DNA of 64,000 nucleotides from an uncultured Holosporaceae bacterium (GTDB taxonomy: Bacteria; Pseudomonadota; Alphaproteobacteria; UBA3830; CASESI01). Shown one piece after another: positions 56,895 to 58,464 of this stretch. The notes beneath the pieces were generated by a model that ran no database searches, was not told where the DNA came from, and saw only the letters and a list, made by a program, of their open reading frames with translations. The DNA lies in the NCBI GenBank assembly GCA_949290705.1, contig CASESI010000014.1, forward strand, positions 37,802-101,801, given 5' to 3'. Within the stretch, counting starts at the first letter, position 1. Each line of letters begins with the position of its first letter. A program made the translations under genes and the position numbers.

Positions 56895-56921
56895 CTTTTT
56901 TCAAGGATTTTATTGCGAGGC
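56895..56921. repeat. 27-bp direct repeat, left copy
   Basis: cttttttcaaggattttattgcgaggc is identical to 58438-58464. It includes the relic sequence gcctcgcaataa (A-S-Q-stop on the minus strand) of the sulP 3' end. Confidence 0.9.
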
Positions 56922-56963
56922 TGCTAACCTATTTTTAACATCTTTGTGCCATAATTACTTATC

Positions 56964-57824
56964 ATGCAAAAAAATTTTGTAAAAAAGATCTTCATGATCA
57001 TTATCTCTGGGATGTTGATTTTGAATATCGAATCTTCTAGTGATAACACATCACCAACCTCAACTGAAGACAAACAGACAAATGATTCTCAAAAACCACA
57101 TTCAAGACACAATTCCGATGAAGCACTTGCTGGGAATGATGATAAAAAACAAAAAGTTGAAGAATCCTCTTTAAACTTCAGTATCACAAAAAATAATCTA
57201 CATAAAAAGTTTTTATCAGAATTGCCCATGACCACATTCTCAATACCAATACAAGAAATTAGAAGCATAATGCGTAATCATAACCACTTCGTGGGAAAAT
57301 TTGACCTCGAAGAGGTAAAAGAGCAAGCTAGGACTCACATTACTGAAAAACATCCAAAATTTATAAAGACAAGAATAACGGAGGACAATAAGGAAGATAC
57401 TACAAAACTATCATTTGATGATTTAATTAATGCCGCAGTTACAAGTAACATATGTTATATTTCCTTTGAAAAGAAGAAGAATAATATCTCTATAGATATT
57501 CTATTAAATATCAATGACCTCAAAACAAAAGAATTTTATACCCTCACATATGACGAACAATCGATTTTGTCAGAAAATAAAGAAGAACCGACAACTCTTT
57601 CGAGTGATGAATGCTTGGTTCTTAAAATAGTATTTAATAAATTGAAAAAAAACAGAAAGCGTAAATCACCAAAACAATACGCAAATAGATATAAAGGATA
57701 CACGCTCAAAGCTATATATCCCTACACATACCCACAAAACAAACTCCCGGAACCCCCAAGAGAATCAGATACACCGTACAAATTCAGTTTTTTACCAGCT
57801 GAGATAAAAATCGAAAAAAACTAA
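56964..57824 (+). CDS. hypothetical secreted protein (286 aa)
   Basis: Signal-like KKIFMIIISGMLILNIESS, an S/T/D/K-rich linker, and a basic cluster KLKKNRKRKSPK. AT-rich. No family recognised. Confidence 0.45.
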   Translation: MQKNFVKKIFMIIISGMLILNIESSSDNTSPTSTEDKQTNDSQKPHSRHNSDEALAGNDDKKQKVEESSLNFSITKNNLHKKFLSELPMTTFSIPIQEIRSIMRNHNHFVGKFDLEEVKEQARTHITEKHPKFIKTRITEDNKEDTTKLSFDDLINAAVTSNICYISFEKKKNNISIDILLNINDLKTKEFYTLTYDEQSILSENKEEPTTLSSDECLVLKIVFNKLKKNRKRKSPKQYANRYKGYTLKAIYPYTYPQNKLPEPPRESDTPYKFSFLPAEIKIEKN

Positions 57825-57831
57825 CACAATC

Positions 57832-58398
57832 TTAGTTTGTGTCAGATTGTTTCTCGCCTTTCTTATTCAATCGAACAGAGTGTTTCTTATGACGCATCCG
57901 TGTTCCAAATTTAATGATCTTCCTAACCATTTTCAAATTTACCCCCCATCCTTTTTCTTCTAACTGTAACAACCATTTGATATTGCGATGATTCTTTCCT
58001 CCCCAATTATCATTCCAATAACAGTTATGAATCAATGGATGAATCAAAATTTCTTTAAACTTATCGTAATCTTCAATATTTTTTTTCAAATCTCGCAACC
58101 ATTGTTTATAGCCACCTTTTTGGGAATATTTACAATACATCATTGCATCATCCGTTTTGCATAATGTGATTGTACAAGTTGCAGGAACCATATAAAACGA
58201 ATCCGGTGTATTTTCCTTGCTCTCCAACGATTCCGAACCCCCTAAAGAGGCAAGAGAGCCGGAAGAATCATGCAACGTTTCGATAACCTCTTGGGATAAG
58301 CCAGAACTTGAACTCTCACCCAATTTTTCAGCGATAGATTGATCCTGGCTTGCAACACATCCAAAAATCCAAAGTGTTAAAAAATATGCTTTTTTCAT
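57832..58398 (-). CDS. hypothetical secreted/lipoprotein-like protein (188 aa)
   Basis: MKKAYFLTLWIFGCVAS (signal peptide with Cys), four further Cys residues, W-rich, basic C-terminus. No family recognised. Confidence 0.45.
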   Translation of the reverse strand: MKKAYFLTLWIFGCVASQDQSIAEKLGESSSSGLSQEVIETLHDSSGSLASLGGSESLESKENTPDSFYMVPATCTITLCKTDDAMMYCKYSQKGGYKQWLRDLKKNIEDYDKFKEILIHPLIHNCYWNDNWGGKNHRNIKWLLQLEEKGWGVNLKMVRKIIKFGTRMRHKKHSVRLNKKGEKQSDTN

Positions 58399-58437
58399 TA
58401 TTACCTCCCATCGGTATTATTGTACAAATTAATAACA

Positions 58438-58464
58438 CTTTTTTCAAGGATTTTATTGCGAGGC
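58438..58464. repeat. 27-bp direct repeat, right copy
   Basis: Identical to 56895-56921. It overlaps the last four codons (incl. stop) of the sulP pseudogene. Confidence 0.9.

Follow-up and report, generated by a model that had tools for sequence, protein, structure and literature searches.

Genes at the Locus

The locus lies in a continuous stretch of 64 kb, hereafter the window. A tRNA-Arg gene with the anticodon UCU is located at 56780-56856 on the minus strand (found by ARAGORN, and as a tRNA of 67 bits in Rfam, which gave no other structured RNA at the locus). Next to it is a cassette of two genes, followed by sulP (58453-60130, minus strand) for an anion transporter of the SulP/STAS type and lysS (60262-61815, minus strand) for a class I lysyl-tRNA synthetase (LysRS), which served as the flanking synteny anchor. 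The window strain carries sulP as a pseudogene, with a nonsense mutation at codon 174 and an insertion of one nucleotide; the gene is intact and encodes 558 amino acids in L003, L004, and L005. A candidate sulP promoter was read from the sequence at 60168-60196 on the minus strand (TTGACA and TATAAT, 17 nt apart).

The first cassette gene, ORF1 (56964-57824, plus strand), encodes a hypervariable protein of 286 amino acids with a hydrophobic N-terminus and no known domain. ORF2 (57832-58398, minus strand) encodes 188 amino acids with a signal peptide, a possible lipobox (IFGC), and a variable C-terminal domain. Between the two is a terminator-like hairpin with a T-run (57821-57845, minus strand). 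Neither protein had a match in Pfam or PHROGs, and the AlphaFold models were of low confidence (pLDDT 50 for ORF1 and 36 for ORF2). A profile search returned clade members only, apart from weak matches to PAN/apple and SBBP repeat proteins; these were repeat-driven and the kinship was not trusted. Related strains and a sister species had homologues of both genes, searches of 5.8 billion and 1.84 billion proteins gave none outside the clade, and the window contained no further copies. Of the earlier description of the pair as convergent orphan genes for signal-peptide proteins, made from the sequence alone, the convergence and the hydrophobic N-termini stand, but with homologues in relatives the genes are not strict orphans.

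The same sequence-only reading had termed the cassette AT-rich. This is correct relative to the immediate neighbours only; at 33.1% GC the cassette is close to the window mean of 32.4%, and sulP (45%), lysS (43%), and flgE (40%) are the GC-rich outliers. ORF1 and ORF2 are most likely resident genes for a pair of secreted proteins that evolve fast.

The 27-bp Direct Repeat

The cassette is bounded by a perfect direct repeat of 27 bp, CTTTTTTCAAGGATTTTATTGCGAGGC on the plus strand, at 56895-56921 and 58438-58464. The window contains exactly these two copies (0 expected) and no third copy with up to three mismatches, and 100 dinucleotide shuffles gave no match. Related loci had exactly two copies apiece and no match was found in viral contigs, which rules out a common dispersed element. 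Both copies were also present in at least five independent assemblies from other samples and different assemblers (L001/L002, L003, L004, L005, L006, and L087-L090). An artefact of assembly collapse or duplication is therefore excluded. A repeat search reported an extended repeat of 46 nt with 80% identity, in which the additional 19 nt matched at 10 positions, mostly those of a -10 hexamer. We rejected a longer duplication and read the extension as two different promoters.

On the minus strand, the right copy reads GCC TCG CAA TAA, i.e., the final three codons and the stop of sulP (58453-58455), followed by 15 nt downstream. It is thus the true 3' end of the gene, together with a -35 element now predicted to be used by ORF2. 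The left copy is non-coding and consists, on the minus strand, of GCCTCGCAATAA, AAATCC, the -35 hexamer TTGAAA, and AAAG. It is located 38 nt from the tRNA-Arg(TCT) gene, and the earlier view of it as a duplicated sulP 3' end, with GCCTCGCAATAA as the relic, was supported.

Predicted Promoters in the Repeat Copies

The best promoter-like match of the region is a candidate tRNA-Arg promoter at 56876-56904 on the minus strand (TTGAAA, 17 nt, TATAAT; 11/12), with its -35 hexamer within the left 27-mer. Second best is a candidate ORF2 promoter at 58419-58447 on the minus strand (TTGAAA, 17 nt, TACAAT; 10/12), with its -35 hexamer within the right 27-mer and a GGGAGG ribosome-binding site following. 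The top two matches between 56600 and 58700 are thus precisely the two repeat copies. Each has the hallmarks of a sigma-70-type promoter: near-consensus hexamers, a spacing of 17 nt (16-18 being required), and a position upstream of a gene. This architecture was kept in all strains and in the sister contig L092. Judged by sequence, each repeat copy is predicted to be the -35 and upstream half of a sigma-70-type promoter, the left one for tRNA-Arg(UCU) and the right one for ORF2.

Gene Order in a Sister Lineage

Two contigs, L092 and L093, represent a sister lineage with SulP 78% and LysRS 79% identical to those of the window. The order in L092 is lysS, ORF2' (134 aa), ORF1' (289 aa, convergent), sulP, 70 nt, tRNA-Arg, and flgE. 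The homologous pair is thus found between lysS and sulP, about 1.9 kb away and on the opposite side of sulP, so that tRNA-cassette-sulP-lysS in the window lineage corresponds to tRNA-sulP-cassette-lysS in L092. Homology of the pair was found by tblastn against L087/L089 for both ORF2 (E ~1e-12) and ORF1 (E 2e-5 to 1e-4), and the 134-aa protein was recovered at 5.6e-9 in the profile search of 1.84 billion proteins. In both L092 and L093 the sulP stop is followed by 70 nt and then tRNA-Arg. An empty site with tRNA-Arg directly next to the sulP 3' end does therefore exist, and it supports the view that the sulP-tRNA-Arg junction is older and that the cassette was inserted into it.

Promoter-like sequences were found in L092 ahead of tRNA-Arg (TTGAAA-17-TATAAT) and ahead of ORF2' (TTGAAA-17-TATATT), and CTTGAAAA / TTGAAAAAA is common to both. 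The tRNA promoter with the left copy aligned to the L092 sulP-tRNA spacer with a score of 35, and the right copy, from CTTGAAAA to the ATG, aligned to the region upstream of ORF2' with a score of 38; neither score was matched by any of 500 shuffles. The part of the right copy downstream of CTTGAAAA had no significant alignment to the L092 tRNA promoter (31/500 shuffles). The orthology thus switches at the -35, i.e., the junction of the rearrangement maps there.

The other side of sulP was found to be collinear between the lineages. The sulP promoter region has its orthologue in the spacer between ORF1' and sulP of L092 (score 64, 0/500 shuffles), and the sequence after the lysS stop (60229-60262, minus strand) is orthologous to the lysS-ORF2' spacer (score 39, 0/500 shuffles). 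The window lysS-sulP spacer therefore matches both L092 cassette flanks, with a degenerate -35 (TTAAAA for TTGAAA) where ORF2' would begin, and 60229-60262 is read as the vacated former site of the cassette. The L092 cassette also lies between direct repeats that include a -35, at 8552-8579 and 9920-9947; these are imperfect (26/30 nt), and 5 of 500 shuffles scored equally high.

Variation Between Strains

The cassette was found at the same site in all nine related assemblies, with both repeat copies fixed; there is thus no presence/absence polymorphism. Three allele classes were found, with conserved ends and cores that were either unalignable or 76% identical. The signal-peptide-coding ends were conserved and the cores unalignable even between strains with flanks of 92-97% identity, and the cassette core has been exchanged between strains. 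The allele breakpoints, 57087 and 58199, are located within the genes rather than at the repeats. Alleles are therefore exchanged via the conserved ends of the genes and not via the 27-mers. The repeat copies were identical across strains with flanks differing by up to 7%, and at such divergence perfect identity over 27 nt is statistically unremarkable.

One contig, L091, has a junction in which the 27-mer is joined to an inner flank on either side. In its first 31-mer, the 27-mer follows the flank from the ORF2 promoter (ACA) and leads into the ORF1 flank, and its other end overlaps by 30 nt (k-1) with a window-type ORF2 5' region. Such a contig suggests a circle or cassettes arrayed in tandem, the evidence being one short contig end from a metagenome assembly with k=31, in which a mixture of strains or a repeat longer than 30 nt is possible.

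Signs of Integration and Transposition

Elements associated with tRNA genes are flanked by direct repeats (attL/attR), and the perfect 27-bp repeat agrees with this. Its position is 38 nt upstream of the tRNA 5' end and not within the 3' portion of the gene, and neither an atypical composition nor presence/absence among close relatives was found. The absence of an integrase was confirmed: no recombinase or transposase domain was detected in ORF1 or ORF2 (Pfam, PHROG), and none is on record within about 8 kb in the L003 and L005 loci. Target duplications of insertion sequences and transposons are usually 2-14 bp, compared to 27 bp here, and the only inverted matches were A/T runs, none of them terminal. 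A dif-like site consists of a 6-bp centre between two arms of 11 bp that show partial dyad symmetry. The best ungapped match of the 27-mer to E. coli dif was 12/27 (equalled by 357 of 2000 shuffles), and the 27-mer had no dyad symmetry; a Xer-dependent element (IMEX or dif module) was therefore rejected.

Origin of the Repeat

We lean towards the view that a local rearrangement by duplication exchanged the positions of sulP and a resident two-gene cassette, and that the 27-bp repeat is the scar it left behind. The older order would be lysS - cassette - sulP - tRNA-Arg, still present in the sister species, which the window lineage would have changed to lysS - sulP - cassette - tRNA-Arg. The common -35 box CTTGAAAA of the ORF2 and tRNA-Arg promoters may have served as microhomology, and an unequal crossover or a replicative template switch at this sequence would have duplicated the region, with a subsequent loss of redundant copies. 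The steps may have been a tandem duplication and two deletions, or a templated insertion and one deletion. From a sulP copy that would once have abutted the tRNA gene, the last 12 coding nucleotides and the -35 region would remain as the left 27-mer, and we propose that this relic was retained because it is part of the tRNA-Arg promoter. In the right 27-mer the real sulP end would have become joined to the ORF2 leader and its -10, so that the promoter is a hybrid. The relic and the hybrid promoter would explain why each copy is now the -35 and upstream half of a predicted promoter.

What was found at the locus agrees with duplication and loss in several respects. Adjacent segments differ in order from the sister lineage while the gene content is the same, remnants of duplicates are located where they are predicted (the sulP 3' relic and the degenerate ORF2 -35), and the junction is at a microhomology common to both parental sites, CTTGAAAA / TTGAAAAAA. 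A relocation is also supported by the native GC content of the cassette, by the lack of a recombinase, terminal inverted repeats, or a dif-like site, and by the fixation in nine assemblies. It is close to illegitimate recombination, which the sequence-only reading had named as a fallback. An intermediate in which sulP or the cassette is present twice was not seen.

A second short repeat links the region upstream of ORF1 with the lysS-sulP spacer and supports the relocation. This 12-mer, TATTTTTAACAT, contains a -10-like TAACAT and is located at 56930-56941 on the plus strand, and it recurs at 60232-60243 in the spacer. The window contains three copies compared to 0.15 expected; the one at 51899-51910 is unrelated and counts against the relocation, and the link is therefore given moderate weight.

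The polarity of the change is inferred from the relic. Outgroups with SulP 59-63% identical (L094-L099) had unrelated contexts and no synteny, and only two gene orders are known; polarity therefore follows from the logic of the relic. None of the 80 lysS loci listed had sulP beside it, and the best among the matches listed in a LysRS search of genome contigs was 54% identical. Two metagenome scans for outgroups gave no matches, and these did not return L092's own contig either.

Two observations do not fit easily with a simple scar. There are two repeat pairs, of 27 and about 30 nt, that end just past a -35, which could point to a dedicated insertion mechanism. In addition, the L091 junction suggests that repeats recombine or that arrays exist, and this is not required by the scar model.

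A rival reading takes the cassette for a non-autonomous mobile unit. It would have inserted beside the -35 boxes of resident promoters and duplicated a target of about 27-30 bp, driven by a recombinase encoded elsewhere or by a homology-facilitated mechanism via its own -35 box; the sulP/tRNA site of the window and the lysS/sulP site of L092 would have been hit independently, or the cassette hops. The repeats at the two sites are of similar length and end 4-7 nt past a TTGAMA hexamer (27 nt with 100% identity in the window, about 30 nt with 26/30 in L092), each lineage has the site of the other unoccupied, the L091 junction fits a circle or a tandem copy, and the core is swapped among strains. 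We nevertheless consider such a unit unlikely. The window lysS-sulP spacer retains homologues of both L092 repeat copies and not of one, and therefore the L092 repeat either predates the split or is no target duplication. Moreover, a generic -35 box is the sole sequence common to the two repeat pairs, the cassette and about 8 kb around it have no recombinase or transposase domain, terminal inverted repeats and a dif-like site are lacking, the 64-kb window has no more copies of the 27-mer or the genes, and the position is fixed in nine assemblies.

Alternatively, a hypervariable locus for surface proteins may at present use the 27-mer as a handle for recombination: unequal or homeologous exchange between the promoter-bearing repeats would stack, delete, or swap cassettes and so form a cassette array, and an incoming cassette would be expressed from the -35 of the repeat. 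This concerns the function today and is compatible with either origin. Although the ends of L091 are as expected for a tandem array of two cassettes, and the allele classes and the identity of the repeat copies across strains agree with a handle, we regard it as distinctly improbable: the evidence from L091 is a single short contig end, the breakpoints are inside the genes and away from the repeats, and the identity of the copies is unremarkable at this divergence. A broader proposal makes the 27-mer more than a scar, namely the working joint of a cassette system that is bounded by promoters and needs no recombinase, and in which a hypervariable two-gene cassette for secreted proteins relocates between promoters and stacks into tandem arrays via repeats containing a -35; it appears to us just as doubtful. 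In such a system each cassette would automatically be expressed from the -35 that it duplicates, and the L091 junction and the second promoter-containing repeat pair in the sister species would be its traces.

Finally, the entry of a foreign islet at an att site beside tRNA-Arg with later loss of its integrase, as first proposed, is largely refuted and very improbable, since, despite the perfect direct repeats, the nearby tRNA gene, the lack of assigned functions, and the empty site in the sister species, the repeat is on the promoter side of the tRNA gene, upstream of its 5' end and without any tRNA sequence, the cassette has the GC content of the genome, the sister species has a resident homologous pair close by, no homologues beyond the clade were found in either protein collection, the 27-mer is absent from the viral contigs searched, and no integrase remnant was found.

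Comparison with Known Systems

Altogether, the locus appears to bear the footprint of a local rearrangement by duplication and loss rather than an integrated islet. Where a long perfect direct repeat encloses an "orphan" cassette by a tRNA gene, the arrangement can pass for such an islet, and genome-scan pipelines should check on which side of the tRNA gene the repeat lies and compare the composition genome-wide before an islet is called. The genes encode a hypervariable pair of secreted proteins in a gut-associated alphaproteobacterium that is poorly sampled and perhaps Holosporales-like; the pair may matter for the interaction with a host or a protist. To our knowledge, clean footprints of duplication and loss have seldom been pointed out in bacterial chromosomes, although this is an impression.

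The att-site duplications of integrative elements include those of integrase-less, cis-mobilisable remnants, and there are Xer-dependent IMEX and dif modules. Like these, the locus has a short cassette with no integrase inside and with direct repeats (about 27-28 bp) on either side, and one repeat copy restores a host gene at its 3' end. It differs in that the repeat lies elsewhere than at the 3' end of a tRNA gene and has neither dif-like arms nor dyad symmetry, and in that the composition is native, the cargo is resident in the sister lineage, and presence/absence polymorphism is lacking. Hypervariable loci for surface or secreted proteins in host-associated bacteria have conserved 5' ends and swapped 3' domains. 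The conserved signal-peptide-coding ends and unalignable cores found here resemble this, but the unit here consists of two convergent genes, and its link to the repeat is positional only.

Changes of gene order by tandem duplication and random loss are best documented in metazoan mitochondrial genomes (PMC5745709, PMC3283314). As in these, adjacent segments are swapped, a non-coding remnant of the duplicate is found at the predicted place, and no mobile-element genes are present. Unlike the mitochondrial cases, the change is in a bacterial chromosome, no duplicated intermediate was seen, the junction is in a shared promoter box, and the remnant is 27 bp long and retained as the -35 region of a promoter. 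Microhomology-mediated tandem duplication or template switching has been described in bacteria (bioRxiv 10.64898/2026.05.22.727201; PMC4888836). The likeness lies in a junction in a microhomology of 7-9 nt (TTGAAAA/TTGAAAAAA) and in a local, recombinase-free process, and the difference in that the outcome here would be a fixed relocation with a hybrid promoter and not an unstable amplification. A promoter box can thus be both the microhomology for recombination and the reason that the scar is preserved.

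A repeat-bounded gene pair between tRNA-Arg and sulP

The 27-mer CTTTTTTCAAGGATTTTATTGCGAGGC is found at positions 56895-56921 (left copy) and 58438-58464 (right copy) of the 64-kb window. A third copy was not found in the 64-kb window with up to three mismatches allowed, and no match was obtained in dinucleotide-preserving shuffles (0/100). The 27-bp repeat is real and non-random. The left copy lies 38 nt from tRNA-Arg(TCT) (56780-56856, minus strand). The right copy contains the sulP stop codon (58453-58455, minus strand) and reads, on the minus strand, GCC TCG CAA TAA, which is the end of the sulP frame, followed by AATCCTTGAAAAAAG. 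Between the copies are ORF1 (56964-57824, plus strand, 286 aa) and ORF2 (57832-58398, minus strand, 188 aa), here termed the cassette, which are convergent with a terminator-like hairpin in between and had zero matches in Pfam and PHROGs. The sequence-only reading had described the repeats, the tRNA, the sulP end and the two genes correctly, and we recovered the same coordinates.

The minus strand is the sense strand for lysS, sulP, ORF2 and the tRNA. On this strand both copies terminate in CC-TTGAAA-AAAG, and the repeat consists of 12 nt from the very end of sulP, then 5 nt, the -35 hexamer and 4 nt. In the left copy TTGAAA is followed after 17 nt by TATAAT, with the tRNA starting 19 nt further on; in the right copy TACAAT follows after 17 nt, and then come the ribosome-binding site GGGAGG and the initiation codon of ORF2. 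The two copies were the top two sites in a consensus scan of 56600-58700, matching at 11/12 (first) and 10/12 (second) positions. This layout suggests that the repeat joins the sulP end to the upstream half of a promoter, each copy being placed in a predicted sigma-70-type promoter. Both predicted promoters were unchanged across all strains compared. An "extended" repeat of 46 nt (80% identity) was rejected; outside the 27-mer just 10 of 19 positions agree, mainly in the -10 hexamer, and the longer repeat is apparent because both copies sit in predicted promoters sharing a -10-like hexamer.

Conservation of the locus in related strains

Related loci were recovered from other samples by exact-protein look-ups and homologue searches. 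Identity to the window was 100% for L001/L002 (Logan ERR10610537), 99.7% for L006 (ERR10610650) and 97.9% for L003, L004 and L005 (from two assemblies in ENA and one in Logan). L087/L088 were from ENA, L088 belonging to the macaque-gut project PRJEB22765, and L089/L090/L091 from Logan SRR229740xx. Every locus spanning the region had identical synteny (flgE - tRNA-Arg - ORF1 - ORF2 - sulP - lysS) and exactly two copies of the 27-mer. The right copy of L087/L088 carried one synonymous G>A change, and the repeat was 28 nt long in L087-L089. An assembly artefact was rejected on the recurrence of both copies in loci from other samples, a dispersed element on the exact two copies per related locus, and presence/absence polymorphism on the cassette being present in every spanning locus.

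In the window strain sulP (58453-60130, minus strand) is a pseudogene with a nonsense mutation at codon 174 and a 1-nt C insertion (nt 614 in the intact CDS). Only the frameshift is present in L006, and the gene is intact (558 aa) in L003/L004/L005. The lineage is sparsely sampled: the best LysRS match was 54% identical among the matches listed from 185,579 GTDB species representatives, and a SulP relative at 59% identity carries the label Holosporales MAG. Samples with the lineage include cynomolgus macaque gut.

An empty site and a displaced cassette in a sister species

Relatives found by a SulP search formed a graded series, in which the nearest distinct lineage (P0011) was represented by L092/L093 from JGI metagenomes. 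Identity to the window lineage was 78% for SulP and 79% for LysRS, and ~50% for the FlgE-like protein. The order in L092 is lysS, a 134-aa gene, a convergent 289-aa gene, sulP, 70 nt, tRNA-Arg and flgE. The sulP-tRNA junction is empty and consists of the sulP stop, 27 nt, TTGAAA-17-TATAAT and the tRNA. An empty site, which the sequence-only reading had proposed to look for in relatives, is thus present in L092/L093, and that reading was also right to see an insertion that duplicated its target.

The 134-aa and 289-aa genes are homologues of ORF2 and ORF1 (ORF2' and ORF1'). ORF2' matched ORF2 of L087/L089 with E ~1e-12, and ORF1' matched their ORF1 with E 2e-5 to 1e-4 over 184 aa. Both pairs are convergent, of similar sizes and with N-terminal hydrophobic segments, and the ORF2 homologues have the common motif D(Q/D)S(I/V)AEKL(G/S)ESS. 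A profile search with the ORF2 alignment recovered the 134-aa protein at 5.6e-9 and no other credible match among 1.84 billion representatives. The homologous pair between lysS and sulP of L092 indicates that the cassette is a resident, clade-specific gene pair, located on opposite sides of sulP in the two sister lineages.

Junction anatomy and proposed relocation

Junction flanks of the window and L092 were compared by local alignment, each against 500 shuffles. The region upstream of ORF2, from CTTGAAAA to the ATG, scored 38 against the ORF2' upstream region (0/500) and 23 against the L092 tRNA promoter (31/500). The left copy with the tRNA promoter scored 35 against the L092 sulP-tRNA spacer, the first 36 nt past the lysS stop 39 against the lysS-ORF2' spacer, and the remaining lysS-sulP spacer 64 against the ORF1'-sulP spacer (0/500 each). 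The 36-nt segment contains a -35 that is degenerate in the window (TTAAAA for TTGAAA), and the remaining spacer contains the sulP promoter TTGACA-17-TATAAT. These alignments identify the right copy as a fusion point, with sequence derived from sulP and the tRNA promoter upstream and from the ORF2 promoter downstream. The orthology switch falls within the -35 box common to both parental promoters (CTCTTGAAAATAAT and ATATTGAAAAAATC in L092), and the lysS-sulP spacer of the window resembles a site that the cassette has left.

The 12-mer TATTTTTAACAT upstream of ORF1 (56930-56941) is found again in the lysS-sulP spacer (60232-60243), which fits a duplicative history. We give this less weight because of a third, unrelated copy at 51899-51910 (minus strand) near the start of a fliK-like gene; the 12-mer could be a promoter-like word that recurs in this genome.

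With the polarity and exact number of steps that we infer, the ancestral minus-strand order would have been lysS - [-35o] - ORF2/ORF1 - sulP promoter - sulP - s3 - [-35t] - tRNA, where -35o denotes the -35 box of the ORF2 promoter, -35t that of the tRNA-Arg promoter and s3 the final 12 nt of sulP. Unequal exchange or template switching between -35o and -35t would have duplicated the cassette and sulP as a unit or, equivalently, copied either segment to the far side of the other. Loss of the redundant cassette beside lysS and the redundant sulP beside the tRNA would then give lysS - sulP - s3[-35] - cassette - s3[-35] - tRNA. Downstream, the repeat would end at the crossover point; upstream, its left copy would be bounded by the end-point of the deletion that removed the redundant sulP. 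Retention of the sulP relic would be explained by its containing the -35 of the tRNA-Arg(UCU) promoter, probably together with upstream sequence of that promoter. A changed order, relics and microhomology, as tested for duplication-loss, were each found; an intermediate or a polarity-informative outgroup was not found among the relatives compared. The best explanation, which we consider somewhat probable, is that the repeat is the scar of a local duplicative relocation, both copies now serving as predicted promoter -35 regions.

Alternative readings

The locus could instead belong to a promoter-bounded system, in which promoter boxes are the places where the cassette moves or stacks. This would be more interesting than a relocation scar, and we regard it as rather improbable. 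One lead towards it is L091, which starts (positions 1-31) with ACA, the 27-mer and TGCTAACC, thereby joining the flank on the inner side of the right copy (ORF2 promoter) to that of the left copy (ORF1), and whose end (1382-1411) shares an identical stretch of exactly 30 nt (k-1) with a window-type ORF2 5' region. The first 31-mer of L091 covers the entire 27-mer and distinguishing bases on either side and should therefore, if k = 31 is the value used for Logan contigs, occur in reads. The simplest readings of this junction are a tandem two-cassette array (sulP-27-C-27-C-27-tRNA), an excised circle or, in the strain concerned, a repeat exceeding 30 nt. The L092 cassette is also flanked by an imperfect direct repeat (26/30 nt; 8552-8579 and 9920-9947, cores TTTTTTCTCTTGAAAATAAT and TTTTTTCTCTTGACAAAAAT), each copy having a -35 box, of ORF2' and sulP respectively. 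However, the window spacer keeps homologues of both L092 copies, so the pair must either be older than the split or be something other than a target duplication.

The sequence-only reading had offered an integrase-less islet as one possibility; an islet of this kind, foreign and integrated beside a tRNA, was not supported. A tRNA integrative islet has an integrase, a tRNA 3'-end target, atypical composition and presence/absence polymorphism, whereas this locus has none of them. The contrast between an AT-rich cassette and GC-richer flanks is real locally, but the outliers are the neighbours, not the cassette. GC content is 32.4% for the whole window, 33.1% between the repeats, 31.6% for ORF1 and 36.0% for ORF2, compared to 45% for sulP, 43% for lysS and 40% for the flgE-like gene, the three highest among 49 ORFs. 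Composition therefore lends no support to a foreign origin. A Xer-dependent integrase-less element was rejected since the repeat lacks arms resembling those of dif, and a transposon fails on transposase, terminal inverted repeats and target-duplication length.

The FlgE-like hook protein (54079-56769, plus strand) is unusually long (896 aa) with internal ~33-aa tandem repeats, ATKGG[ED]KLWLATDGN.YTETEAAADPAI.FE.A. A 3119-aa ORF (2267-11626, minus strand) had no Pfam domain above cut-off, with weak sub-threshold matches only (Apolipoprotein and Baculo_PEP_C models).

Variation within the cassette

ORF1 is a divergence hot spot, being 93% identical to L003/L005 (37 substitutions and in-frame indels of 9, 3, 6, and 3 nt) compared to 99.5% for ORF2, 99.9% for flgE and 98.4% for sulP. 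In L003/L004 and, independently, in L006, a 2-nt deletion near 57705-57713 shifts the frame at the 3' end of ORF1 and alters its C-terminal tail. Elsewhere in ORF1 there are in-frame indels at several positions (57198, 57471, 57579 and 57774). The frameshifts and indels could be decay or rapid diversification.

L087-L090 have flanks 92-97% identical to the window, and 57088-58198 (the 3' two-thirds of ORF1 and likewise of ORF2) is unalignable between them and the window. The L087-type allele resembles the L092 pair more than the window allele does, and L091 is a third allele, 76% identical throughout. The break-points fall inside the genes and away from the 27-mers, which indicates allele replacement via conserved 5' gene ends. 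No fold or family match was found for ORF1 or ORF2, and predicted models were of low confidence. The ORF2 C-terminal domain (57832-58150) gave a weak, repeat-driven profile match (E 2.9e-4) to a PAN/apple-domain protein with the motif G-Y-x-x-W-C/L-x-D, at most a hint of an adhesion-type fold.

Comparison with known systems

In other variable surface-protein loci allele replacement likewise proceeds through conserved 5' gene ends, and the cassette alleles resemble them in this use. The proposed relocation follows the same duplication-random-loss logic that is well known from the mitochondrial genomes of animals (e.g., PMC5745709, PMC3283314). In bacteria, short homologies at the junction commonly accompany tandem duplications (background in bioRxiv 10.64898/2026.05.22.727201). 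The locus is a new example of an already known kind of process, and its novelty is modest.
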